Below the pieces are notes generated by a model. The model saw only the letters and a list, made by a program, of their open reading frames with translations. It was not told the origin of the DNA and searched no databases. The position numbers were made by a program, and so were the translations under genes. 64,000 nucleotides of DNA from Planctomycetota bacterium. Its GTDB lineage: Bacteria; Planctomycetota; B15-G4. The stretch spans positions 32,001 through 96,000 of the forward strand of contig JBBQUR010000011.1 in assembly GCA_038212275.1 (NCBI GenBank), in the 5' to 3' direction. Positions 6,663-24,985 of the stretch are shown in pieces. Every line of letters begins with the position of its first letter. Within the stretch, counting starts at the first letter, position 1.

Positions 6663-9155
6663 TCAGGGTGTCGTCGCGGTGATCGCGTTGCTGGCCGAGA
6701 AACCGGAGGGCCCCGCGGGATCGATGACCCACTCCTGCATCCAGAGCGTGGCGCCGGACGGCAGGCCCGCCGGCCCGATGAGGGTGAGCTTCTGCGCGCC
6801 GGCGCCGTCGATGGGCAGGCCGGCGATGAGCAGGTCGGGCGCGGGGACCAGCGTGCCGCCCTTGAACGGCGCGTGGATCGCCGAGACACCGACCAGGAGC
6901 GCCGCGCTGCTGCCCGGCTTCGCGTTCGTGAGCGCGAGCGCGAGCACGTCGCCGGCGATGAGCGTGCCCTTGCCGACGAATTGCGGGACGCCGCTCACAC
7001 CTGCCAGGCCGAAGCCGAGGTCGGCCCAGGGTTCCGGGAGCAGGTCGAGGTCGAAGGCATAGGCCGCGCCGGAGCCGGGAATGTCGTTGTTGGCCCCGTT
7101 GCCGTTCACGCCAGTCGCGTTGCTGTCCTCGCTGTACGCGGAACTCGCGACGACGTCGCCGGAGATGGCGACGCCGATGCCGAAGTTGTCGAGCGAGCCG
7201 GTGTTCGAGGCCTTGAGGTAGGCCTGCTGGCTCCACGTGGTGCCGTTGCGCACGAAGACGTAGGCCGCGCCGGCATCGCCGGCCGCGTCGTCCGAGGCGC
7301 CGTTCACGCCGGTGGCGCCGCCATCTTCGGTCCACGCGCCCACCACGATCGCGTTGCCGGAGACGGCCACCGCGTTGCCGAAGGCGTCGCCATCGCCGGT
7401 GTTGGAGGCCTTGAGGTAGGCCTGCTGACTCCACGTCGCGCCGTTGCGCACGTAGACGTAGGCGGCGCCGGAGTTGACCGCGCCATTGTTGTCGTCGTCG
7501 CCATCCACGCCGGTGGCGTTGCTGTCTTCATTGGGCGCGCCGACGACGACCGTGTCGCCGGAGACGGACACGGACTGTCCGAAGTCCTCGAAGTTGCTCT
7601 GGACCGCGGAGGGTTTGAGGTAGGCCTGCTGCGTCCACGTGGTGCCGCTGCGCGCGAACACCCACGCCGCGCCGACGCGGTTCAGGCTGTCGTCGTTCTC
7701 GTCGCCATTCACGCCGGTGGCGTTGCTGTCCTCGCCGGTGCCGCCCACGGCGATCGTGTCACCCGAGATGGCCACCGACTGGCCGAAGAAGTCGTCCACG
7801 TCCGACGTGGAAGCCTTGAGGTAGGCCTGCTGTGTCCACGTCGTACCGCTGCGCACGAACACGTAGGCGGCGCCGGAGCCGGAGAGACTGTTGCTGAGCT
7901 GGTTGCCGTTCACGCCCGTGGCGTTGCTCGCCTCCTTGTAGGCGCCGACGACGATGCCGTCGCCCGCGATGGCGACGGAGATCCCGAACCAGTCGTTCGC
8001 GCCGGTGTTCGAGGCTTTGAGATACGCCTGCTGGCTCCACGTGGTGCCGTTGCGCACGAAGACGTAGGCCGCGCCGGAGGACAAGGCGGAGTTGTCGGCC
8101 TGGCTGCCGTTCACGCCGACGGCGCTGCTGTCCTCGAGCCACGCGCCCACGACGATGGTGTCGCCAGAGATCGCGACCGCGCGGCCGAACTGGTCGAGCG
8201 CACCGGTGTTCGAGGCCTTGAGATAGGCCTGTTGGCTCCACGTGCCGCCGGTGCGCACGAACACGTACGCCGCGCCGGCGTTCTGCAGGCTGTTGTTCGC
8301 CTGGTCACCGTTCACGCCGGTGGCGTTGCTGAACTCCAGCTCCGCGCCGACGACCACCGTGTCGTCCGAGACGGCGATCACGCGCCCGAACTCGTCGAAG
8401 GAGCCGGGGTTCGAGGCCTTGAGATACGCCTGCTGCGCGATGGGATCGACGGTGAGCGGGTAGCGTGCGCCGTCCTCCTCCACGCAGAGGTGCAGCAGGT
8501 CGCCCGTGCGCTCGATGCGCGCGGCGAGTTCGCGACCGTCGGCATCGAAGGCCGTCAGGCCGCTGTAGGTGAGCGCGACGGCGCCGGTCCCGTCGAGGAA
8601 GTGCACGCCGCGGCCGTCGCCGTCCACGTCGGGGGCCAGCGTGCCGTCCACGGCCAACGTCAGCGTGAGCGGGCCGCGCTGCGCCTCGCCGCACGGCGGG
8701 CGCTGCAGCACGGTGAAGCCGTGCTCGAGGCCGCGCGCATCGTTGAGGTACCACTCCTGCAGCGTGGCGTCCCAGTTCCGGGCCATGCGTGCACCGTCGG
8801 TGGCGAGGCTCGCCGGCTCGACGACGAGGCTCTCGTTGCCAGCGAAGCCGTAGCTCCTGAGTTGCAGGCCCCACGTCCAGCCGCCGGCAGCGGGCACGGT
8901 GCTCGCACCGTGATCATCGATGCGCGTGTGCCAGCCCTGCCCGGGATTGTGGAGCAGGTAGCCGCCGTCCACCGGTTGCGCCGCGTGCCGGGCGGCCTCA
9001 TGCGCGGCACGGATGCCGGACCAGTCGGCGGCGCTGAACCCGCCACGGGCCGGGTCGGCCAACGGGCCGGTGGATGGGACGACCAACTGACCAGATGCCG
9101 GGGTGAGCAGGAGCAGCGTGCCGAGAGCGACGACCGGCCAGCGGGAGTGAATCAT
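6663..9155 (-). CDS. Secreted FG-GAP/integrin-alpha beta-propeller protein with 121-aa PFKGG C-terminal domain
   Basis: Signal peptide; repeated QQAYLKASN..D.FG..VA.SGD.VVGA..EDS units; conserved tail at 6663-7028. Confidence 0.92.
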   Translation of the reverse strand: MIHSRWPVVALGTLLLLTPASGQLVVPSTGPLADPARGGFSAADWSGIRAAHEAARHAAQPVDGGYLLHNPGQGWHTRIDDHGASTVPAAGGWTWGLQLRSYGFAGNESLVVEPASLATDGARMARNWDATLQEWYLNDARGLEHGFTVLQRPPCGEAQRGPLTLTLAVDGTLAPDVDGDGRGVHFLDGTGAVALTYSGLTAFDADGRELAARIERTGDLLHLCVEEDGARYPLTVDPIAQQAYLKASNPGSFDEFGRVIAVSDDTVVVGAELEFSNATGVNGDQANNSLQNAGAAYVFVRTGGTWSQQAYLKASNTGALDQFGRAVAISGDTIVVGAWLEDSSAVGVNGSQADNSALSSGAAYVFVRNGTTWSQQAYLKASNTGANDWFGISVAIAGDGIVVGAYKEASNATGVNGNQLSNSLSGSGAAYVFVRSGTTWTQQAYLKASTSDVDDFFGQSVAISGDTIAVGGTGEDSNATGVNGDENDDSLNRVGAAWVFARSGTTWTQQAYLKPSAVQSNFEDFGQSVSVSGDTVVVGAPNEDSNATGVDGDDDNNGAVNSGAAYVYVRNGATWSQQAYLKASNTGDGDAFGNAVAVSGNAIVVGAWTEDGGATGVNGASDDAAGDAGAAYVFVRNGTTWSQQAYLKASNTGSLDNFGIGVAISGDVVASSAYSEDSNATGVNGNGANNDIPGSGAAYAFDLDLLPEPWADLGFGLAGVSGVPQFVGKGTLIAGDVLALALTNAKPGSSAALLVGVSAIHAPFKGGTLVPAPDLLIAGLPIDGAGAQKLTLIGPAGLPSGATLWMQEWVIDPAGPSGFSASNAITATTP

Positions 9156-13768: not shown

Positions 13769-14040
13769 GGGAGACAGCTCCGTTGGAGAATCGCAGGGTC
13801 CATCGAACGACGCGGGGAGCGACTTGAATGGGCCGCCGTTGAAGCCATCGGTCGCAGGCGTGCTCGATGCGAAAGCTCTCAGCCTCCGGCCCGTGGAGGT
13901 GCCGACCATCTGCGAGTCCCTGAGTCGGGGTGGCTCCGTGAAGGACCGCGTCGCCGTCTTCATGCTGGAAGCAGCAGAGCTGCATCGCCGCCGTGGAAAC
14001 GGATCCGGCCGGAGACACGGCGTCCGTCCGGTCGCCTCGA

Positions 14041-14199
14041 GCCATCACGGGCTGGATCCAGCCGCCGGCGCCTCGCGTCAGCTTTCGCGTCCGACTCCCG
14101 GCCCAGACCCGGCAGCGTGCTCGAGAACAGCGTGCCGTTGCGCAGCGTGAGGCAGCCGGCGGCGATGGCGAGCACGACTCGTCCATGCAGCCCACCATG
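14041..14199 (-). repeat. Diverged, internally deleted duplicate of the epimerase 3' end and its downstream flank
   Basis: Matches about 14915-15030 and 15112-15150 (CLTLRNGTLF..TLPGLG; gactcgtccatgcagcc.accat). Confidence 0.85.
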
Positions 14200-14904
14200 G
14201 GCGCGAGCGAAGACGTCGGCGCGAGCGTCGCCGGCGGGGCGCGCGGCGCGGCGCTCGGACGCCCGCAGCCGTTCAACCGCGTGGAGGCCGCGTACACGGA
14301 GATGGCGCGCGACGCCGGAGTCCTCGCCACCCGGATCAGCGTGCTGGAGCAGGACGGGCTCGCGCACCTGCTCGTGCACCGCCTCGACCTCGACGGCGAG
14401 CAGCGACGCCATCAGCACACGCTCGGAGGCCTCCAGCACATCGACTACAACGACACGGGCGCGAGCAGCTACGAGGAATACCTGCGCACGGTGCTCGGCC
14501 TCGGGCTGCCGCACGCGGATGTGGAGCAGGCCTGCGTGCGCATGCTGTTCAACCTGGTGGCGGTCAACCAGGATGACCACGTCAAGAACCTCTCCTTTCA
14601 CATGGACGCCTCCGGGGCCTGGTCACTCTCGCCGGCGTACGACCTGACCTTCGCGCGGGGGCCCGGCTTCACGGCACGCCACCAGATGCGGGTGCGCGAC
14701 CGCACGGAGGGCATCACCGCGGAGGACCTGCTCGCCGTGTGCGCGGAGTTCGGCGTGGACGATCCGGGCGCGCTGCTCCAACGCGTGCGGGACAGCGTGG
14801 CGCGTTTCGAGGAGTTCGCTGCCGCCACCGGCGTCCCGGCGGACACGCGGACGGCCGTGCGAAAGGCGCTGGACCTCCGCGCCGCCGAGTTGGGCGCGGC
14901 CTGA
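14200..14904 (+). pseudogene. hipA: HipA-family kinase toxin, C-terminal fragment only
   Basis: NQDDHVKNLSF and LSPAYDLT motifs; the N-terminal half and any antitoxin are absent. Confidence 0.8.
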
Positions 14905-14944
14905 GCGACACGGCGGCAACACGGGTCTGATCCGGCACCTCGCG

Positions 14945-16018
14945 TCAGCTCCCCGCGTCAGGCTCCCACCCCAGCCCCGGCAGCGTGTTCGGGAACAACG
15001 TGCCGTTGCGCAGCGTGAGGCAGCCCGCGGCCGGGTCGCCCTCCAGGTCGAGGTGACCGTCGAGATCGGCGTAGCGCACGTTGGGCCGCGCAAGCGCGAA
15101 GTGCAGGCCGGCCGCGATGGCCAGCGCGGACTCGTCCATGCAGCCGACCATCACCTCAAGACCCGCGGCACGCGCTACCGCATTCACCCGCAGCGCCTCC
15201 GCGATGCCACCCACCTTCATGAGCTTCACGTTGACCATGTCCGCCAGGTTCTTGCGCGCGATGCGGAAGGCGTCGCGCAGCGTCATCAGGCTCTCGTCGG
15301 CCATGATGGGCAGCGCGACGGCGGCGGTCACGCGGCCGAGCAGGTCAGGCTCGCCCTTGGGCGTGGGCTGCTCGACGATCTCGAGCTTCGCGCGGCGCAC
15401 GCCTTCGACGAAGCGCACCGACTGCTCGAAGCTGTAACCCTGGTTGGCGTCGAAACGCAGCTCGATGCCGTCACCCACCGCGGCGCGCACGGCGAGCACG
15501 CGCTCGATGTCGGCCTCGACGTCGCGGCCGCCCTTGAGTTTCAGGCAGCGGAAGCCCTGCGCCATGAACTGCCGCGCGCGTTCCAGGGTTTCATCCTGCG
15601 GCAGGATGCCGATGGTGATGCTCGTGCGGATGCGGTCGCGGTAGCCGCCGAGCAGCTTCCACAGCGGCAATCCCGCGGCCTTGCCGAGCAGGTCGAACAG
15701 CGCCATGTCGATGGCGGCGCGCACGGACGACGAGGCCGCGAGCGGCTCGCGCAGCAGCTCCATGAGGCGCACGTGGCGCAGCGCGTCGCAACCTCGCAGC
15801 AGCGGCTCCGCCGTGCCGCCGATGGCGAGCAGCGCACCCTCCGGCGTCTCGCCGGTGACGGCCAGGTCGGGCGCCGCGCAGCCGTAGCCGACGAGCCGCG
15901 TGTCGGTCTCGATGCGCAGGAAGACGTTGGTCACCCTGTCCACGCTCTCGTAGGCGATCACGTACGGCTCGACGAGCCGCATCGGAACCTCCCACGCGGT
16001 GACCTTCGTGATGCGCAT
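14945..16018 (-). CDS. Dipeptide epimerase (enolase superfamily, L-Ala-D/L-Glu epimerase/DgcA-like)
   Basis: KLKGG, DANQG, EQP, MADES, NVKLMKVGG, GCMDES and DLDG motifs. Confidence 0.93.
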   Translation of the reverse strand: MRITKVTAWEVPMRLVEPYVIAYESVDRVTNVFLRIETDTRLVGYGCAAPDLAVTGETPEGALLAIGGTAEPLLRGCDALRHVRLMELLREPLAASSSVRAAIDMALFDLLGKAAGLPLWKLLGGYRDRIRTSITIGILPQDETLERARQFMAQGFRCLKLKGGRDVEADIERVLAVRAAVGDGIELRFDANQGYSFEQSVRFVEGVRRAKLEIVEQPTPKGEPDLLGRVTAAVALPIMADESLMTLRDAFRIARKNLADMVNVKLMKVGGIAEALRVNAVARAAGLEVMVGCMDESALAIAAGLHFALARPNVRYADLDGHLDLEGDPAAGCLTLRNGTLFPNTLPGLGWEPDAGS

Positions 16019-16203
16019 GGCCGCAGTATGCCGGGGGCCTCGGGCCCGAAACACTTCGGAGTCCGGACGCGCCCGCCCCGGCCACATCCGGCGTCGAGAC
16101 GTCTCCGGACGCGCGTGGCACGCCGCATCGCATCGCATCGGGCGTGGCGCCCCGCATCGCGTCGCATCGCGGCGCATCGCGGCGCGCGCTGCCGCGGCTT
16201 GCG

Positions 16204-16566
16204 TCAGGCGTCGCGGTGCACGGTGTCCGGCGTGAAGGCGGGCACGCAGACCGCGACGTATTCGGCGCCCTCGGGCAGCGGCGTGCTGTAGCGCACCCAC
16301 TCGCCGCCGGCGACCTCGATGCACTGGCCGGCGTGCACGTCGATGTCTCCGTCGCGCGAGGTGACGCGCAGCATGCCGCGCAGCACGAGCGTGTACTCGT
16401 CGAAGTCCGGTGTCTGGCCGGGTTCGCTCCAGCCGCCGGGCGAGGTCATGCGCGCGATGCTCACGCTGCCTTCTCCCGTGTTCGCGCGACCGACGAATTC
16501 TTCGATGCGCTTGGGCGGCGAGCCTGCGGCAAGCATGACGGTGGGCGCTGCGATGAGGCGTGGCAT
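16204..16566 (-). CDS. Cupin domain protein (EutQ-like)
   Basis: GWSEPGQTPDFDEYTLVLRG...WVRYSTP...VCVPAF; 120 aa. Confidence 0.85.
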   Translation of the reverse strand: MPRLIAAPTVMLAAGSPPKRIEEFVGRANTGEGSVSIARMTSPGGWSEPGQTPDFDEYTLVLRGMLRVTSRDGDIDVHAGQCIEVAGGEWVRYSTPLPEGAEYVAVCVPAFTPDTVHRDA

Positions 16567-16573
16567 GCGCCCC

Positions 16574-19246
16574 TCAATACCGCTTCTGGTAGATCTCGTC
16601 GAGGCTCATGCCCTTGAGTTCCTCCACGAACTCCACCATGTTGCGGATCATGACCTCCCACATGCGCTGGCCCTTCTCGATCGAGGCCCTGGTCGGGTCG
16701 CCCATGATGCCGGACTTGCTGATGGCCGAGGTGCGCGCGAACCACTCCACCGAGCGCTTGGACGTGAAGTCGAGGTAGCCGGAGGAGAACTTCGGCACGA
16801 ACTTCTTCGCCTTGTCCATGCGCACGAGGTGCGGCCGCAGGGCGAGCGTGGTCGAGGTCTCGATCTCGCCGGCGTGCACATCGTTGTCCGTCTCGATCAT
16901 CTCGGCGAGATCCGCGTCGGCGGTCTCGCCGGTCTCGACGCAGGTGAAGATCTTCGCGTCGCGGTTGATCTGCTGTGCCGCGAAGCGCAGGCAGGGCCGG
17001 TTGCCGCCGTGCCCGTTGATGATGATGAGCTTGGTGATGCCGTGCCGCGCGACGGACATGCCCACCTCGCGCACCATGGCCGAGAGCGTGTCGGGACCGA
17101 CGGAGATGGTGCCGGGGAAGTCGTCGTGGTGGTACGCGACGCCATAAGGGATGAGCGGCAGCACGAGCGGATGCGGCGCGCGGCACGCCGCACCGACGGC
17201 CTGCGCGAAGTACTCCGCATCGAAGGAGTCCACGTCCAGCGGAAGGTGCGGGCCGTGCTGCTCGATGCTGCCCACCGGAAGCAGCGCGATGTCCACCTCG
17301 CGGAAGCGCTTCTGCGCGTCAGGCCAGGTGAGCTCGCCGAGCATCCACGGCCGCGCGCCGGACGGGCGGCCCGTGGTCAGCGGCGCGGTGGCGCCGGCCG
17401 CATCCGGAGCTGCCGCCGCAACGGCCGGCGCTCCCGTAGCAGCTGCCGGCGCTCCCGTAGCAGCTGCCGGCGTGGCCGCAGCACGCGTCGGCGTGGCCGC
17501 GGCAGGCGCCGGCGTTGTTGCAGAACCTGCCGGAGTCGTGGGCGCGCCCGCAGCTTGTGCCGACGTCTCTGCGCGCGACGCGGGAAGGAGCCGTGCTCGC
17601 TGGCTCGCGGGATGCTTCACCGGCGGCACGATGCTCGCTTGAGCCGGCAGCTTGGCTTCGAAGGGATACGGCGTCATGAGTTCGGGATCCGAGAGCGGGT
17701 CGATGTCGATCCAGAGGCGGCCGTGCTTGCGCAGCGCGCCTTCGGCGTATTGCAGGGCGATGCGGTAGAGCGGCTCGCGCAGATCGACGGGGATGTCGTC
17801 CATCGGGGCGCGCTCCGGGTCGAAGCGCAGCTTGACGGCCTCGGGCCTCGGCCGCGCGCGCGACACGTCGTCTGCGGTCGGCTTCCACAATCCGCGTTCC
17901 TGCAGCAGCCAGAGCACGTGCTCGGCGCACTCGGCCTCCTGCGCGACGCCCTTCTTCGCAAGGACCGCGAGACATGCCTCGACCTGCGCCTGAGTGTAGC
18001 CGCAGCGCGCGGGGTCCGCGCCCACGCCGAGCAGCATGCCCACGATGCGTCGGCATTTCTCGCACGCGCCGCACGGCAGCACGCGGCCCTCGACGCTGTG
18101 CGCGGCATGACAGCTCACCTGCTCGCGCTGCAGCTCCGGGTAGCGCTGCACGAGCATCGTCTGGATGACCAGCTCCGACATCGGGCGCAGGATCGAGAAC
18201 TGGCACACGCCCCAGCCCTTGCGCGCGAAGTAGCGCGACAGCGCGTTGTCGAACCAGCGGCTCTGATCGTAGAGGCCGTCGTAGTGGCGGATGCCGGCGT
18301 GCACGGCGCGTCGGCTCGTGTCGTACTCGTCGCCGATGATGAGGCGCCCGATGCCGCGGCGGCGCAGCAGCGGCAGCGCGCCGAAGAGGAAGACGGCGAC
18401 GGTCCACAGGCGGATCGGATACTCGTCGCTGCGCACCTCCTGGAAGTTCTGCCGGATGAAGGGCATGCGCCGCAGCATCCAGGGGAAGAGCCGGTCGCTG
18501 TTGGTCCACACGCGCGCCGTGCCGGGCACGTGCTGCTCGAAATGCCGGTAGGCGTTGAGCGCCGTGAACCAGTGCCGGCCCGACTCGTTGATGTAGATCG
18601 CGTCGGTCGGCAGCCCCAGTTCGTTGAGCAGGCCCCAGGAGAGCAGGCTGTCCTTGCCGCCCGACGAGAGCACCGCGTGGCGCGACGCATCGGAGGACCA
18701 GCGCCGCGCGGCGTGCGAGCCGGAGCCCGCATGGCCGCCACGCGCACCGCGAGAAGGCACGAACGGCTCGTCGGGGAAGTCCAGCTCCGCGCGCAGGTAG
18801 CTCTCGCGGCGCACGGCGGGCAGGCCCATCGCCGGCGGCAGCAGGAACTCGTTCGGCTCGAGGATCTTCTTCACGAAGATCTCGCGCGCCGTGTTCTTCG
18901 CCATGTCGGCGAGAAACTGCCGGTCGTGCCGGTCGAACGGTCCGCGGAAGACGATGCGCTTGCAGAACAGTCCGTAGTTCAGCGCGACCTGCGCCGCGAC
19001 GAGCGCCGCGAGGTTCTGTGCCTCGGGCTCCTCCGGGTCGAAGACGTCCTCTTCCCAGCGGTAGATCAGCTCGAAGGTGTGCGCCTTGCCCCGCTGCTTC
19101 ACCGTGTACGGCGCGATGAGCCGGCGCTTCTCGACCACGACCGGCCCGACGGTCAGCGTGTCGATGCACTGCAGCGCATCGAGCGCGTCGGCCGGCGCGC
19201 GTGCGCGGCTGCCGCCTGTTCGATTCTTCCTGCGTGAGACGGTCAC
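16574..19246 (-). CDS. Fusion of a PP-loop ATPase (MurL-like) domain and a creatininase-family amidohydrolase
   Basis: SSGGKDS, FSILRPMSEL, SCH...CGACEKC; Ala/Pro/Thr linker; GSIEQHGPHLP..D, NGHGGN, DVHAGEIETS. Confidence 0.88.
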   Translation of the reverse strand: MTVSRRKNRTGGSRARAPADALDALQCIDTLTVGPVVVEKRRLIAPYTVKQRGKAHTFELIYRWEEDVFDPEEPEAQNLAALVAAQVALNYGLFCKRIVFRGPFDRHDRQFLADMAKNTAREIFVKKILEPNEFLLPPAMGLPAVRRESYLRAELDFPDEPFVPSRGARGGHAGSGSHAARRWSSDASRHAVLSSGGKDSLLSWGLLNELGLPTDAIYINESGRHWFTALNAYRHFEQHVPGTARVWTNSDRLFPWMLRRMPFIRQNFQEVRSDEYPIRLWTVAVFLFGALPLLRRRGIGRLIIGDEYDTSRRAVHAGIRHYDGLYDQSRWFDNALSRYFARKGWGVCQFSILRPMSELVIQTMLVQRYPELQREQVSCHAAHSVEGRVLPCGACEKCRRIVGMLLGVGADPARCGYTQAQVEACLAVLAKKGVAQEAECAEHVLWLLQERGLWKPTADDVSRARPRPEAVKLRFDPERAPMDDIPVDLREPLYRIALQYAEGALRKHGRLWIDIDPLSDPELMTPYPFEAKLPAQASIVPPVKHPASQRARLLPASRAETSAQAAGAPTTPAGSATTPAPAAATPTRAAATPAAATGAPAAATGAPAVAAAAPDAAGATAPLTTGRPSGARPWMLGELTWPDAQKRFREVDIALLPVGSIEQHGPHLPLDVDSFDAEYFAQAVGAACRAPHPLVLPLIPYGVAYHHDDFPGTISVGPDTLSAMVREVGMSVARHGITKLIIINGHGGNRPCLRFAAQQINRDAKIFTCVETGETADADLAEMIETDNDVHAGEIETSTTLALRPHLVRMDKAKKFVPKFSSGYLDFTSKRSVEWFARTSAISKSGIMGDPTRASIEKGQRMWEVMIRNMVEFVEELKGMSLDEIYQKRY

Positions 19247-19558
19247 GCGGCACACTCTACGATCGGGAGCTGAGCTCCCACCGCGAGAACTGGCCACGGC
19301 CCGGGTCTCGCTCCGGGCAGCGGCGCGAGTCGGCGCGAGTCGGCCGAGTCGGCGGGCGGCGACCTGCGTCGGCGGGCGTCGGCGCAGGTCGCCGTGACGG
19401 CAACCGGTGCGCTCCTGTCACGCCGGCGCGGCGATCCCGATTCGGTGGGAAGGGAAGCCTTCCGACCGGGACCTCGTCCGCCGTGCTCGCGCGGTGGACG
19501 CCTTCGGCGCCGGTCACACACCCTCGTCTGAGCCACCCTCTTCGCCGGGAGCGCACGC

Positions 19559-20812
19559 ATGTCTCGATCCAGCCTGCTCACGTCCTTCGTCGGCGCCGCG
19601 GTCCGCGGCACGCCGCTTTCCCGGCGCATCGCCCCCCGCTCCGCGTCTGCGCGGCTCGCGGCCGCGCTGCTTGTCGTGGCGGCGCTCGTCGTCGCAATGC
19701 CCGCCGCGCAGGCCGGCCTCACGCTGGCGAGCCAGTTCAACCCGGGCATCGGCCAGCTCGTCGCCGGCGCGTTCGACCCGGTCAACGGCACGGTGTGGGT
19801 GTACGGCGGATTCGGCGCCGACCTCCGCCAGTACACGCTGGCCGGCGCTTTCGTCTCGTCGATCCCGCGGCCCGGCGAGAGCGCCGATGACTTCGATCTC
19901 GAGGTCCTTCCCGCCGCGATCGTGCTCAACGGCACGCCCATCCCCGCGGGCACGCTGCTCGTGATCAACGGCGAGTCTGGCGTCGCCGAGATCTACGCCG
20001 TGGACAAGCTCACGGGCGCCGTGCTCGCCACGCTCCCCACCGCCTTCGGCACGAACCACGTCGTCGGCGGCGCCTACCACCCTGGCCGCGACAGTTTCTT
20101 CCTCGTGCAGGACAAGGTCGCGACCGGCGCGCCGAACCAGAGCCTCGTCGCGGAGGTGGACCGGGCCACCGGCGCGGTGCTCGGCAGCTTCAAGGTGGAC
20201 AGCCAGCTCCCCGGCTTCACGGTCAACTACGGCGACATCGAGGTCAGCGCGGCCACCGGCAACCTCTGGATCGTGAGCAGCGACGAGACGTCGATCGCGG
20301 AGTTCACGCCGGCGGGTGTCGTCGTGCAACAGCTCGCGCTGCCGGCGGGTGTCAGCTCGCTGAGCGGCATCGGCCTCGACGACGCGGGCGGCGGTGCGTG
20401 GGTCACGTCGTCGAGCGGCGTGGTCTCGCATCTCGGCGGCGCCACGTGGTCGCACCTCGACCACGCGCTCGCGGGCAGCGCGGGCCTGCCGACGCTCACC
20501 GGCTCCGGCACGCTCGCGTCGGGCGCGCCGACGACGCTGACCATCGCGCACGCCAAGCCGCTCTCGACGGCCTACCTGATCCTCGGCTTCGCCCAGCTCT
20601 CCGCGCCCTTCAAGGGCGGGACGCTCGTGCCGCAGCCCGACATCGTGAGCCCTGCACTCCCCGTGAGCGCCGCCGGCTCGACGGCCGTCGCCTTTCCATG
20701 GCCGGCGGGCATCCCGAGCGGATTCCCGCTCTGGTACCAGGCCTGGATCGCGGACGGCGCCGCGGCCGCAGGATTCGCCGCGACCAACGGACTGAAGTCG
20801 ATCACGCCGTGA
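19559..20812 (+). CDS. Secreted beta-propeller-like protein with 121-aa PFKGG C-terminal domain
   Basis: Signal peptide ending AQA; tail at 20447-20812; GGAG upstream. Confidence 0.85.
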   Translation: MSRSSLLTSFVGAAVRGTPLSRRIAPRSASARLAAALLVVAALVVAMPAAQAGLTLASQFNPGIGQLVAGAFDPVNGTVWVYGGFGADLRQYTLAGAFVSSIPRPGESADDFDLEVLPAAIVLNGTPIPAGTLLVINGESGVAEIYAVDKLTGAVLATLPTAFGTNHVVGGAYHPGRDSFFLVQDKVATGAPNQSLVAEVDRATGAVLGSFKVDSQLPGFTVNYGDIEVSAATGNLWIVSSDETSIAEFTPAGVVVQQLALPAGVSSLSGIGLDDAGGGAWVTSSSGVVSHLGGATWSHLDHALAGSAGLPTLTGSGTLASGAPTTLTIAHAKPLSTAYLILGFAQLSAPFKGGTLVPQPDIVSPALPVSAAGSTAVAFPWPAGIPSGFPLWYQAWIADGAAAAGFAATNGLKSITP

Positions 20813-20860
20813 GGGGGCGGACGCCTGACGCCTTGCGCACGCGGGCCCAGGTCAGTCGGA

Positions 20861-21934
20861 CTACGCCAGCCACGGCCGCAGCGCGTCCACCAGCACCGCG
20901 CCGCCGTGCAGCAGCGCGTCGCAACACGGCAGGCCCGTGCGGCGCGTGATGTCGGCGCACGCAGCCGGCACTGCGGCGAGGTCCATGCCCTCGTGGTTCA
21001 GCGTGACGGCGACGACCTTCGCGTTGCTGATCATCTCGACGGCCGCGATCTGCTTCTCGAGCGGGTGCATCGCGTAGCCGGGGAAGCCGTCGTACTCCTG
21101 GCGCACCGGCGCGTGCTGCATGACGACGCACGCGGGGCGGCCCGCGGCCAGCAGCTCGTAGCCGCCGGGATACGCGGGGTTCATGAGACTGCCCTGGCCC
21201 TCGAGCACGATGGCCCGCGGGTGGCCGTCGTTCCACGCGGACCACACGGCGTGCTCGATCTCGCCGGCGAGGAAGTCGTTGACGCAGGTGTCGAGCACGA
21301 TGCCGTGTTTCACGCCCTGCATCCACGCTGTCTGGCCGGTGCCGACCATGCGCGCGCTGACGCCCGCCGCCTCGAGCGCGTCGACGAGCACCCACGCGGT
21401 CGTGCGCTTGCCCACCGCGCTGTCCGTGCCGAGCACGGCGATCTTGAGCGCCGCGACCTGCTCGATGACGCCGCTGAAGAAGTGCAGCTCGCTCTTGGGA
21501 GGCGGGCGGCGCACGTCGCGCAGCACGACGCCGTGCTGCTTCGCGAGCGCGGCCAGCTCCGCGTCGTCGTTCAGGTAGTCGTGCAGGCCGCAGTCCACGT
21601 TGAGGCCGGCGGCGATGGCGGCCTTCACGTCGGCGCGGCCCGCGGGCGGCAGGCGTCCGCCGTCCGGCGCGAGGCCGACGACGAAGTGCGTCGCCGGCGT
21701 GCCGGCCGCGCGCGCGGCGGCCAGCGCCTCGGCGAGCGTCGCGAGCACGGGGATGCCCTTGGGCGTGCCGTCGAGCACGTCGGCCGCGTCGCGGCCCGCG
21801 TACGTCGCGTCGAGCACGGAAAGCACGCGGTAGCGCGCAGTGCGGCGCACGAGTCCGTGCGCGGTCTTGCCGTTGGGCGTGTTGAACGCGCCCTGACACC
21901 ACACGATGGCCGCGCCGTCGGGGCGATCGATCAC
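20861..21934 (-). CDS. DUF1611 family protein (DgcN-like)
   Basis: GKTAHGLVR, GLHDYL, GTDSAVGKRTT, GTGQT and EGQGSL motifs. Confidence 0.92.
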   Translation of the reverse strand: MIDRPDGAAIVWCQGAFNTPNGKTAHGLVRRTARYRVLSVLDATYAGRDAADVLDGTPKGIPVLATLAEALAAARAAGTPATHFVVGLAPDGGRLPPAGRADVKAAIAAGLNVDCGLHDYLNDDAELAALAKQHGVVLRDVRRPPPKSELHFFSGVIEQVAALKIAVLGTDSAVGKRTTAWVLVDALEAAGVSARMVGTGQTAWMQGVKHGIVLDTCVNDFLAGEIEHAVWSAWNDGHPRAIVLEGQGSLMNPAYPGGYELLAAGRPACVVMQHAPVRQEYDGFPGYAMHPLEKQIAAVEMISNAKVVAVTLNHEGMDLAAVPAACADITRRTGLPCCDALLHGGAVLVDALRPWLA

Positions 21935-21957
21935 GGAGCCGCGCGAGAAGGGCACGC

Positions 21958-23103
21958 TCACGAGCGCCGCCCCGTCAGCACGCACACGTAGCGGTCGCCG
22001 GGGAGCGGCTCCTGCTTGTGGCGGTTGAGCAGCGCGACCAGGCCCGCGGTGCTGGCGGGCAGGACGTGCAGGCCTTCGCGCTCGCGCAGCATGCGTGCGC
22101 AGGCGAGCAGCTCGCGGTCGGAGGCGTCGTCGGCCCAGCCGTTGCTGAGGCGGATCGCGGCGAGCGCTTCGTCGCCGTCGCTGCTGCGCCAGTTGATGAG
22201 CGGCTCATTCACGACGGTCTCGCGGATGGATTGCGGCGACAGGTCCTCGCACGTCACCAGGTTCTTGGCGAAGGCCTGCACGATGGGATTCTTGCGGAAG
22301 CTGCTGCCGGCCACCATGCGCGGCACGCGCGAAGTCTTGCCGCGGCGGTCGAGGCTCTGGAAGCCCTTGAGAATGCCCGCCAGCGTCGTGCCGTTGCTCA
22401 CCGGCACCGCGCACGCGAAGGGCGCGTCGCGCAGATCGTCGTAGATCTCGGCCGCGATCTGCCCGTACTTCTTGAGCTGCAAGGCGGTGTTGGCGCCGCC
22501 GGGGTTGGCGTCGTAGAGGCCCTCGCTCGCGGCGAGCAGGCGAGAGTGCTCCACGGTGCCCTCGTAGTCGCGCGGCACGCGCACGATCTCCGCCCCGTAA
22601 CCCTCCATCTCGGCGATGCGCCGCGTGTGATACTGCTCGGGGATGCAGATCACGCAGCGCAGTCCGCCGAGCCACGCGGCCAGCGCGAGCGCCGCGCCGA
22701 AGTTGCCGCAGGTCGCCACGGTGATGGCGTCGAAGTCGCGCCGGATCGCGTCGTGGCACTGCCCGAAGGCGATGCGGTCCTTCTGCGTGCCGGTCGGGTT
22801 GCCGCCCTCGAACTTCAGGAAGATCTGGCGCAGGTTGACGTCGCGCTCGAGATTGCGCGCGCGCGCCAGCGTCGTGTCGCCCACCTCGCTGTCGATGATC
22901 TCCTGATAGGCCTCGACGCGCGCCTCGAGGTGGCGGCCGCGGTCGGCCGCGATGACGCGCTGCTCCTCGATATCCGGCGTGAGCGCGAGGCGCGGGGACG
23001 TGGCGCCGTCGAGCATCGGCAGCACGCGTTCTTCGGCGGGCGTGAGGGCTTCGCCGCTCCTGCCGGCGTCGGGTGAAGACAACTCGGGCCGTGTTTCCGT
23101 CAT
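21958..23103 (-). CDS. PLP-dependent fold-type II enzyme (threonine synthase-like)
   Basis: LKFEGGNPTGTQKDR, TCGNFG, VPVSNGTTLAG, VCVLTG. Confidence 0.9.
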   Translation of the reverse strand: MTETRPELSSPDAGRSGEALTPAEERVLPMLDGATSPRLALTPDIEEQRVIAADRGRHLEARVEAYQEIIDSEVGDTTLARARNLERDVNLRQIFLKFEGGNPTGTQKDRIAFGQCHDAIRRDFDAITVATCGNFGAALALAAWLGGLRCVICIPEQYHTRRIAEMEGYGAEIVRVPRDYEGTVEHSRLLAASEGLYDANPGGANTALQLKKYGQIAAEIYDDLRDAPFACAVPVSNGTTLAGILKGFQSLDRRGKTSRVPRMVAGSSFRKNPIVQAFAKNLVTCEDLSPQSIRETVVNEPLINWRSSDGDEALAAIRLSNGWADDASDRELLACARMLREREGLHVLPASTAGLVALLNRHKQEPLPGDRYVCVLTGRRS

Positions 23104-23248
23104 AGGCGCCACACACTAAGCGATGGCGCTGGCGGCAACCATCAAGCGGGCAGCGACGGGTCGGCTACAATCCCGCGCCCTGCAACCGGTCGCGCCCCGC
23201 AACCGGTCACGCCCCGAAACATGTCGCGCCCCACCCCGAGAGACACCC

Positions 23249-24985
23249 ATGACCGCTGCCCGCACCCCCGTCACCGGCGCGACCCCCGTCTCGCAACCAC
23301 TGTTCCCGACGCCCCGGGGCGCCGCGCCCTGCGCCTCGTCAGTAGCGTCAGCGTCCTCGAGGCCGGCGCTGTCGGCTCGGTTCGGCACCGCTGCGGCGCT
23401 GGCCGCCGCGATGCTCGTCGGTGCCTCGGCCGTGGCGCAGACGCCGCAGGCCACGCTCTTCGGCGATCACGCGGCCGACGCCTCGGGCGCCGCGCTGGCC
23501 ACCCTGCCCGATCTCGACGGCGACGGCCGCGCCGAGCTCATCGTCGGTGCGCCGGGCGACGGCAGCCAGGCTGAGCGCACCGTCCGCGTGCGCCGCAGCT
23601 CGGACGGCGGCCTCCTGCTGCGACTGGTGGACAAGACGCCGGGCGCGCGCTTCGGCGCCGCGGTCGCCGGGCTGGCGGACGTGAACGCGGATGGCCTCCC
23701 CGACCTCGCCGTGGGCTCGCCCGGCAGCGCGCCGGGCCCCGGACGCGTGCGGCTCTTCTCCGCCGCGGACGGCGCCGTGCTGCTCGACTTGTTCTCCGGC
23801 GGCAATGACTCCTGGGACGGCTTCGGCGCCGCGCTTGCGCCTCTGGCCGACATCGACGGCGACGGCGCCTCGGACCTGTTCGTCGGCGCCCCCTCGCTGT
23901 CCGATGAGCAGCCGGGCAGCGCCAGCATCCGCAGCGGAGCGACCGGCGCGGTGCTCGCCACCTACGTCGGTCTCGCGCCGGGCGACCGCTTCGGTGCGGC
24001 CCTGTCGGGCGTCGGTGACGTGAACGCCGACGGCACGGATGACCTGCTGATCGGTGCGCCGGCCGGCGGCTACGCGCAGGTTCGCTCCGGCGCCGACGGC
24101 AGCGTGCTGCTCCAGCTCATCGGCACCGGCGGTGACTTCGGCGCCGCGGTCGCCGCTGCGGGCGACGTCGACGGTGACGGCCACGCCGACCTCGCCGTGG
24201 GCGCGCCGGGCCTCAGCCGCGTGGATGTGCTCTCCGGCGCGAATGGCTCGCTGCTGCGGCGCGTGTCGCGCGAGGGCGCCTTCGGTGCCGCGATCGCCGC
24301 AGCCGGCGACTGGAATGGCGACGGCACGGAAGACTTCCTCGTCGGCGCGCCCGAGGAAACGGTGGCGGGTGGCCTCGGAGCCGGCAGCGTCTACGCCATC
24401 TCCGGAGCGCAGGGTGACGTGCTCTTCAAGGCGCCCGGCGCGGCGGCCGGTGAGCATCAGGGTGCGGCCGTGGCGGTGCTCGGGACGGCCGGCCCCGGCG
24501 TGAAGCCCGATCTTGCCGTCGGCGCCACCGGACTGGTCGGCCCGGCGGCGGAGGCCTCCGGCGGCACGCGCCTCTACGCGGGCAAGCTGGTCGGCTCGAT
24601 CGTGCCGTACGGCATCGGCTGCCCCGGCTCCTTCCTCATCACGCCGCGGCTGGACCTCTCCGGCGACCCGTATCCCGGCGCCCAGGTGAAGCTCGCCATC
24701 ACCAAGGCGCTCGGTGGCTCCTTTGCGCTGCTCTTCGTGGGTGGCGGACAGGGCCTGACGCCCTTCATGAACGGCTGCATCCTCTGGGTGGCGCCGGTGC
24801 TGGTCCCGCCGATCACGCTGCCGCTCGACGGCCCGGGGCCTGGCGCCGGCAACATCACGCTGACGGAGCGCCTGCCCGAGCAGTTGCCTGTCGGATTCGT
24901 GGTGACGATGCAGGCCGTTGTCGCCGATCCAGGCGCAGACGGCGGGCTTTCGTCCACCAGCGCGATTCAACTCACGATCCAGTGA
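23249..24985 (+). CDS. Secreted FG-GAP repeat protein with a divergent C-terminal domain
   Basis: Repeated FGAA....D.DGDG..DL.VGAP; tail YGIGCPG...Q....DPGA.GG.S.TSAIQLTIQ. Confidence 0.9.
   Translation: MTAARTPVTGATPVSQPLFPTPRGAAPCASSVASASSRPALSARFGTAAALAAAMLVGASAVAQTPQATLFGDHAADASGAALATLPDLDGDGRAELIVGAPGDGSQAERTVRVRRSSDGGLLLRLVDKTPGARFGAAVAGLADVNADGLPDLAVGSPGSAPGPGRVRLFSAADGAVLLDLFSGGNDSWDGFGAALAPLADIDGDGASDLFVGAPSLSDEQPGSASIRSGATGAVLATYVGLAPGDRFGAALSGVGDVNADGTDDLLIGAPAGGYAQVRSGADGSVLLQLIGTGGDFGAAVAAAGDVDGDGHADLAVGAPGLSRVDVLSGANGSLLRRVSREGAFGAAIAAAGDWNGDGTEDFLVGAPEETVAGGLGAGSVYAISGAQGDVLFKAPGAAAGEHQGAAVAVLGTAGPGVKPDLAVGATGLVGPAAEASGGTRLYAGKLVGSIVPYGIGCPGSFLITPRLDLSGDPYPGAQVKLAITKALGGSFALLFVGGGQGLTPFMNGCILWVAPVLVPPITLPLDGPGPGAGNITLTERLPEQLPVGFVVTMQAVVADPGADGGLSSTSAIQLTIQ

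Follow-up and report, generated by a model that had tools for sequence, protein, structure and literature searches.

A predicted MurL/QueC-fold domain fused to a creatininase-family amidohydrolase, and its conserved gene cassette

Introduction

What does a protein do that joins an ATP-using domain resembling the epimerase MurL to a creatininase-family amidohydrolase? Such a protein is encoded at 16574-19246 on the minus strand of the window, the 64,000-nucleotide stretch of a Planctomycetota genome analysed here (G000, C11:32001-96000; genome 91% complete). Our comparisons indicate that the fusion is a real, widely conserved, uncharacterised two-part enzyme in a fixed gene set and, as the new result, that it belongs to a new family of the MurL/QueC fold in what appears to be an undescribed amino-acid pathway. 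The gene set probably serves to make or modify a small peptide containing a basic D-amino acid, in a role separate from cell-wall synthesis. The conserved cassette is the main clue to function and was absent from a preliminary description of this DNA.

No description of the fusion or the cassette was found in the literature surveyed, outside which most subscription papers lie. The main text of PMC13329287, taken without its supplements, does not mention creatininase, MurL or an epimerase, and neighbourhood tables in those supplements could bear on the question. The available parts of PMC3605383, PMC8142540 and PMC13759103 contain nothing on this fusion or cassette.

The fusion gene and its architecture

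The gene and its parts are as follows (aa, amino acids; AF2, AlphaFold2; GC3, GC content at third codon positions).

16574..19246, minus strand: fusion gene of 890 aa, predicted MurL/QueC-fold adenylating domain, long linker and creatininase-family amidohydrolase (open frame, motifs, Pfam)
17657..19183, minus strand: N-terminal domain, aa 22-530, with a MurL-type N-terminal beta/alpha subdomain, the PP-loop SGGKDS and a zinc-type SC-x12-CxxCxKC motif (AF2, fold matches, hhalign)
17342..17656, minus strand: Ala/Pro/Thr-rich linker, aa 531-635, 105 aa (length relative to fused relatives, GC3)
16577..17341, minus strand: creatininase-family amidohydrolase domain with EQHG, DxD, NGHGGN and HAGExET; nearest named model MftE, below cut-off (Pfam, motifs)

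The 890-aa frame is free of stops and begins with GTG; a further-upstream GTG at 19297 is also in frame, so the start of the gene is uncertain. All the motifs listed in the preliminary description were located in the protein (SGGKDS at residue 195, GDEYD at 305, YDQS at 326, FSILRPMSEL at 350, SCH at 378 and CGACEKC at 392), together with EQHG at 662, GHGGN at 745 and HAGEIET at 791. The complete creatininase-family domain described there was likewise recovered, PF02633 covering residues 638-874 (247 bits, cut-off 31.3, E 2.2e-73). The Ala/Pro/Thr linker is also present, though in this long form it is specific to this genome: among 77 fused relatives with both ends locatable it is the longest (105 aa vs a median of 24).

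The fusion is neither a product of chance nor of mis-assembly, because GC3 is similar in its two domains (0.93 and 0.95; 0.68 in the linker), PF02633 recurs in 109 of the 120 top-scoring N-terminal-domain homologues, and a single contig of run X1, possibly the source of this DNA, covers 14000-23200 with zero differences. An assembly artefact was rejected on these grounds. No promoter- or terminator-like sites were found in 13800-23300, and no meaningful repeats in 16000-21000 except the linker.

The N-terminal domain is related to both MurL and QueC

Using the N-terminal 519 aa as a query, we matched 2989 proteins among 8000 scored candidates, the best 120 being 59-79% identical (self match aside). 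In a 50%-cluster library, the 428 matches included proteins of 460-520 aa that stand alone and are 30-45% identical. Two of the closest named homologues come from Planctomycetota; among ten clusters looked up, four carried Thermoplasmatota names and one NC10 names. Sequence searches of the PDB gave no significant match, and none was found in the plasmid collection. The AF2 model (predicted local distance difference test score, pLDDT, 95.1) matched solved structures of QatC (Foldseek E 5.7e-6, TM 0.35-0.41), Cap9 (Z 12.8, root-mean-square deviation (rmsd) 2.6, 178 aligned) and QueC (Z 12.7, rmsd 3.2, 190 aligned).

Profile comparisons pointed to MurL. The NCBIfam MurL model NF041275 matched 22 of 33 family members (best E 7.2e-10) and was the only family hit by most of them. 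The fusion itself scored 16 bits against a cut-off of 700, which is strict, as murD-linked MurL-family proteins reach 476-494 bits. Alignment of the family with MurL by hhalign gave a probability of 98.3 (E 1.9e-14, 359 columns, 22% identity). In a like-for-like local profile-profile run, the probabilities were 97.6 for MurL and 71.4 for QueC, and against the hidden Markov model of the family the median scores were 31.3 bits for MurL and 6.9 for QueC. N-terminal elements follow one another in the same order in the AF2 models of the fusion domain and a MurL-family protein. A MurL profile search of the PDB returned no MurL structure. The local Pfam copy contains no MurL model and assigned a MurL-family protein to 0 families, so the missing Pfam match for the N-terminal domain is uninformative. 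Precomputed labels do split the families, PF26298/PF26299 being found on the MurL family and absent from the best homologues of the fusion family.

The likeness to MurL proposed in the preliminary description therefore holds, MurL being the closest named family and nearer than QueC. The profile and Foldseek comparison that it suggested gave a divided answer: the profiles favour MurL, and the solved-fold matches to QatC, Cap9 and QueC do not discriminate. In a fold control, the MurL-family model itself matched Cap9 (Z 13.2) and QueC (Z 12.8) first. A QueC fold and MurL likeness are thus not alternatives, and grouping with QueC, which had been named as evidence against the MurL assignment, cannot separate the two.

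Motifs did separate the families. We compared 33 family members with 103 MurL-family sequences, from which the MurL motifs were derived and which include one protein adjoining murD, and with a QueC set of 26 sequences from 30 loci chosen with a PxRN filter. The MurL motifs GxSYYK, GLGEF, NGHxP, NExS, NHQxSK and PFxCxG, present in 91-103 of the 103 MurL-family sequences, occurred in 0, 0, 0, 1, 0 and 0 of the 33 members. Elements common to both families were retained (PP-loop in 32, SxxRP in 24 and SC..CxxCxKC in 31 of 33). SGGxDS, the Cys zinc motif, YxQxHxxE, VPxRN and YPDC are given as QueC motifs in PMC13329287. SGGxDS is represented by SGGKDS at residue 195, the Cys spacing is C-x12-CxxCxxC, not C-x8, and YxQxHxxE, VPxRN and YPDC occurred in 0, 1 and 0 of 33. 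Motifs specific to the family relative to MurL and QueC were NESGxHW, YPxRL, GxEFD and HY..DQ. In the alignment, the family's YPIRL lies over QueC VPGRN and its ESGRH over YGQRH, and MurL has GHVPIS there. The family therefore keeps the Pro-x-Arg and His aligned with VPxRN and YxQxH, whereas MurL is without them; R99 of VPxRN is described as essential in QueC (PMC13329287).

Taken together, these comparisons mark the N-terminal domain as a distinct family of the MurL/QueC fold. It is homologous to MurL over most of its length and shares with it the N-terminal subdomain order, PP-loop, SxxRP, four-Cys motif and, presumably, carboxylate adenylation. It differs in lacking the MurL pocket motifs, in being present in archaea and beside MurI, and in being fused to creatininase or DUF1611. 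The partner of MurL is MurD2, whereas here the partners are a pyridoxal 5'-phosphate (PLP) enzyme, DUF1611, an amidohydrolase and an enolase-family epimerase. With QueC, Cap9 and QatC (PF06508 clan; PDB 3bl5, 2pg3, 9nto, 9y02), the domain shares the core fold (Z 12.7-12.8), SGGxDS, a zinc-type Cys motif and the aligned Pro-x-Arg and His, but it has extra N- and C-terminal subdomains, neither YPDC nor YxQxH, and no Que or defence neighbours. A canonical QueC was rejected, as YPDC and YxQxH occur in 0 of 33 members and Que neighbours do not recur.

Several outlying homologues were also observed. Six long ones (P0130, P0154, P0165, P0173, P0174, P0215) lack the PP-loop and keep CxxCxxC, and a pseudo-enzyme branch is possible; P0154 and P0165 keep the creatininase domain without EQHG. 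In a single cluster, P0123, a class I methyltransferase takes the place of creatininase as fusion partner of the N-terminal domain. Proteins of 444-458 aa with CxxCxKC (L018:1486-2859, L019:1489-2853, L022:682-2013) are weakly similar to this family and to MurL, and have no Pfam or NCBIfam assignment above cut-off.

The creatininase-family half

The C-terminal half has the motifs EQHG, DxD, NGHGGN and HAGExET, and its metal-binding motifs are well kept in fused relatives (EQHG 107/107, NGHGGN 97/107, HAGExET 103/107). This half thus shares PF02633 and the metal-binding motifs with the creatininase family (MftE, creatininase, ArfB), but it falls below every named cut-off, scoring 155.9 bits against MftE (TIGR03964, cut-off 172) and 109.5 against creatininase (TIGR04448, cut-off 235). 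We rejected a true creatininase on this score and because NGHGGN stands where creatininase has NGHYEN, and MftE on its score and the absence of mycofactocin genes nearby.

A conserved gene cassette surrounds the fusion

The neighbouring genes are as follows.

21958..23112, minus strand: PRK06381 PLP fold-type II enzyme, named threonine synthase, with a conserved Cys135 two before Asn137 (NF004996 408.8 bits, cut-off 266)
20861..21985, minus strand: DUF1611 protein of the DgcN-like N-acyltransferase family, overlapping the PLP gene (family profiles)
19559..20812, plus strand: unrelated gene, probably for a secreted protein, which separates DUF1611 from the fusion only in this genome (no match in L001-L014)
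16204..16566, minus strand: small cupin immediately downstream of the fusion, accessory, in 1 of 14 related genome loci (Pfam, locus comparison)
14945..16018, minus strand: enolase-superfamily dipeptide-epimerase-type enzyme with KxK, metal ligands and DxD kept, and Glu24 and Asp51 in the pocket (profiles, alignment)

On the minus strand the order is PLP enzyme, DUF1611, fusion, cupin and epimerase, interrupted by the plus-strand gene at 19559-20812. We compared 14 genome loci, all from metagenome-assembled genomes (Acidobacteriota, Planctomycetota, Eisenbacteria, Krumholzibacteriia, Gemmatimonadales, a deltaproteobacterium and one unclassified). The order was kept, with the PLP gene and DUF1611 upstream in 13 of the 13 loci with room, the epimerase in 14/14 and creatininase in 13/14.

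A more distant set consisted of the best 80 of 539 metagenome loci, including some near-duplicates; archaeal origin was assigned there from neighbours (e.g. Tsr3) and Thermoplasmatota-named homologues. DUF1611 occurred in 69 of these 80, the PLP gene in 55, the epimerase in 21 and creatininase in 1 (weak, 5 kb off); where there was room for the partner, DUF1611 was present in 65 of 66 and the PLP gene in 49 of 53. A GNAT cluster was found in 47 and an M14-type peptidase cluster in 23, one representative of each having been identified, and the M14-type cluster accompanies the epimerase where creatininase would be. The first three genes of the cassette are thus also seen in loci of archaeal type, and the cassette appears to be common to bacteria and archaea. 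Across the genome loci and these 80, no transporter or regulator belongs to the conserved core of the cassette. No Que or defence genes recurred among the neighbours, and all recurring partners act on amino acids.

Among 753 genomes of three phyla, the domain was present in 17 (3/301 of the host phylum, 12/251 and 2/201). PRK06381 exceeded its cut-off in 16 of the 753 (3, 11 and 2), all among the 17 domain carriers; related genomes are not independent, so we give no p-value. Besides the domain-creatininase fusions, DUF1611-domain fusions exist in P0124, L047, L048 and L054 (the last three probably one organism). The two types of fusion place the domain between acylation and deacylation.

Partner enzymes and clues to the substrate

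In the cassette epimerases, D318 and D320 (DxD) and K160 and K162 (KxK) were present in 31/31. In Bacillus subtilis Ala-Glu epimerase (AEE), according to 10.1101/2022.05.01.490185, Arg24 binds the Ala-Glu carboxylate and Asp321/Asp323 bind the ammonium group. At the Arg24 position, 29 of the 31 cassette epimerases have Glu and the other 2 have Asp, and Asp51, where AEE has Thr, is invariant (31/31). The best PDB match to the epimerase, 3RIT, and the fourth-ranked, 2P88, both have an acidic residue at 51 and presumably act on Arg/Lys-containing substrates.

A similar direction is indicated by DUF1611. The plasmid DUF1611 proteins nearest to those of the cassette (39-43%) adjoin an ornithine-racemase-like gene in Ruegeria, Phaeobacter and Vibrio (3 of the 8 best matches opened), and G098 carries such a pair with an M20 peptidase in between. 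All 22 of the cassette DUF1611 proteins scored best against DUF1611 paired with ornithine-racemase-like enzymes. A 28-row, midpoint-rooted tree with just six outside sequences joined the two groups (99/98) and set haloarchaeal and Burkholderia proteins apart. This link is by analogy only: the ornithine-racemase-like protein and the cassette PLP enzyme are not homologues, and a search of the 94 cassette loci and G000 did not find the former. Glutamate is accordingly an unlikely cassette substrate, given the replacement of Arg24 in 31/31 epimerases and the pairing of the nearest outside DUF1611 with ornithine-racemase-like enzymes; the glutamate and muropeptide substrates of the preliminary description also fit poorly with archaeal carriers and with carriers that possess MurI.

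The gene pair of DUF1611 and an ornithine-racemase-like enzyme, of which we know no description, recurs at L120:5893-8210, L121:5869-8153, L123:3941-6192 and L156:2753-6591 (Ruegeria, Vibrio and Phaeobacter plasmids and G098). A second DUF1611 in G303 had no racemase within its 3.3-kb contig. On a Burkholderia plasmid (L125:3974-9005), DUF1611 heads a biosynthetic-looking cluster with an EPSP-synthase-like protein, a dioxygenase, an aminotransferase and an ATP-grasp ligase, which shows that DUF1611 also has a role outside D-Glu catabolism. A complex prediction for the N-terminal domain with DUF1611 scored 0.00 and is uninformative.

In 56 of 57 cassette PLP enzymes, position 135 is Cys, and a conserved Asn follows two residues later. 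In human serine racemase, the re-face base S84 lies two before N86 (PMC6424897). The apparent register of Cys135 with S84 suggests that the cassette enzyme is a racemase. At the phosphate-binding Arg of threonine synthase, which we take to be Arg160 in Thermus numbering, the alignment is gapped, and the cassette enzyme has Gln212/Leu213 and an invariant Tyr216 in that region. G000 contains four other PLP fold-II matches.

The DgcN model (NF041892) scored 159.7 bits against the cassette DUF1611 (cut-off 480), and the DgcA model (NF042940) 169.1 against the epimerase (cut-off 400). By its NCBIfam name, DgcN transfers an acetyl group. The two pathways share a DUF1611 protein, an enolase-family racemase or epimerase and a deacylase. 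DgcN-DgcA is a D-glutamate pathway (Yu et al. 2023, as cited in PMC12363236 and PMC10845958). The cassette proteins lie far below the Dgc cut-offs, the pocket of the cassette epimerase is acidic and not Glu-binding, and the cassette adds two near-constant enzymes, the PLP enzyme and the ATP-using domain. The DgcN-DgcA pathway itself was rejected on the scores and the acidic pocket.

A proposed pathway and its alternatives

Our firmest mechanistic inference is that the N-terminal domain adenylates a carboxylate, which is probable because this step is common to MurL and QueC-type enzymes. A carboxylate-activating domain tethered to an amide hydrolase, as envisaged in the preliminary description, fits the families, folds and motifs alike. 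Tentatively, we favour amide or peptide bond formation by the domain after adenylation of an N-acyl amino acid, since the family keeps the Arg and His of QueC, since inverting D to L would be pointless if a racemase acts upstream, and since a pathway with a dipeptide epimerase should produce or process a dipeptide. The other QueC-fold enzymes (QueC, Cap9, QatC) form C-N bonds, according to PMC13329287.

The fusion would then cover two consecutive steps of a cytoplasmic pathway to a small amide or dipeptide that is not a peptidoglycan precursor, the product containing a basic residue (Lys/Orn/Arg-type or a shorter diamino acid). The PRK06381 enzyme would make a D-amino acid with Cys135 as second base, and DUF1611 would N-acylate it, as DgcN does with D-Glu. 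The N-terminal domain, with ATP at SGGKDS and Zn at the four Cys, would adenylate the alpha-carboxylate (ATP to AMP and PPi), and attack by an amine would give the amide or peptide bond. The fused metal amidohydrolase would take off the N-acyl group, and the enolase-family enzyme would interconvert the D and L forms of a basic C-terminal residue during maturation or turnover. Addition of the acyl group by DUF1611 and its removal by the fused domain would account for the fusions of the ATP domain to either neighbour and for the ability of M14 to replace the creatininase half. As a complete scheme, we suggest with more reserve, and regard as less likely than not, an undescribed bacterial-archaeal pathway to a D-basic-amino-acid dipeptide or amide that dispenses with ribosomes, non-ribosomal peptide synthetases, ATP-grasp enzymes and Mur ligases. 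It would use a Cys-dependent fold-type II racemase, a DUF1611 acyltransferase, a new MurL/QueC-fold peptide ligase, a deacylase that may be either creatininase or M14, and an epimerase acting in release or turnover.

Several observations weigh against amide-bond formation or its details. Some archaeal-type members have Gln in place of the Arg of Pro-x-Arg. With its invariant P-loop-like GTDSxxGKRT, DUF1611 might itself be the ligase, and the DUF1611 tree had only a small outside sample. Threonine synthase has Thr and cysteine synthases have Ser at the Cys135 position, which is therefore no proof of racemase activity. DxD and Pro-Asp are also present in a Haloferax epimerase encoded between a D-aminoacylase and DUF1611, so these residues prove neither a free-amine dipeptide nor a basic side chain. 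The adjacent PLP gene is missing from L039-L041, and both partners from L061. Finally, MurL, the closest characterised relative, is an epimerase and not a ligase (PMC8788868).

This last point leads to a possible, somewhat less likely function: acting on an N-acyl amino acid or dipeptide, the domain might adenylate the C-terminal carboxylate, invert the alpha-carbon one way and hydrolyse the adenylate. It could do so either for D to L salvage by acylation, inversion and deacylation, an ATP-driven version of DgcN-DgcA, or from L to D for a peptidase-proof product later released by the amidohydrolase and the enolase-family epimerase. In its favour, MurL is the nearest family by profile (ESM Atlas score 0.96), with the element order, SxxRP and SC..CxxCxKC in common; the flanking acyltransferase and deacylase match Dgc logic, and 4 of the 80 distant loci have a gene for a D-aminoacyl-tRNA deacylase close to the cassette. 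However, five of the six MurL-specific motifs are absent from all 33 members and the sixth occurs in one, the cassette already has one epimerase and possibly a racemase, and its near-constant PLP enzyme has no obvious role in an acylate-invert-deacylate loop. An improbable reading is a QueC/Cap9/QatC-type enzyme acting on a nucleobase, cofactor precursor or partner protein, or making a nitrile or thioamide. QatC, Cap9 and QueC are indeed the best solved-structure matches, but the MurL-family model gives the same ones, YPDC and YxQxH are missing, G000 has a separate QueC-like gene, and the recurring partners are amino-acid enzymes.

A divergent MurL supplying D-Glu for peptidoglycan, with an unrelated hydrolase attached, is highly improbable and was rejected. 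G000 does have MurD over its cut-off and no match to MurI or true MurL. Against this, Thermoplasmatota archaea are among the named homologues, MurI, which organisms with MurL lack (PMC8788868), is over its cut-off in 3 of 5 cassette genomes and occurs as two pieces in a fourth, and G098 carries the fusion plus a separate MurL-family gene adjoining murD. No mur gene recurs beside the cassette, the domain is confined to those 3 of 301 genomes of the host phylum, and its NF041275 score is far from the cut-off.

MurL is the only ATP-driven peptide epimerase met in the literature surveyed. The fusion family would represent a large sister family of MurL outside peptidoglycan, packaged with its likely partners, so that the reaction should be reconstitutable from four genes. 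Solving it would assign a function to three orphan or mis-named families (this domain, the PRK06381 'threonine synthase' and one branch of DUF1611), show how the QueC fold switches between amide formation and stereocentre inversion, and point to an unknown D-amino-acid metabolite in sediment bacteria and archaea. The present analysis contributes the MurL fold control, the motif separation, the co-occurrence in three phyla and the racemase link.

Other observations in the window

Two pieces of the 3' end of the epimerase gene recur in degraded form (87-89% identity) at 14065-14198 and 14280-14904, 800 nt downstream of that gene. This copy adjoins a plus-strand HipA_C-domain fragment and resembles a scar left by an insertion or a partial duplication. 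The C-terminal 120 aa of the protein encoded at 19559-20812 had about 90 matches in G000 and also occur on the FG-GAP proteins at 6663-9155 and 23123-24985, which suggests a lineage-specific C-terminal sorting domain.

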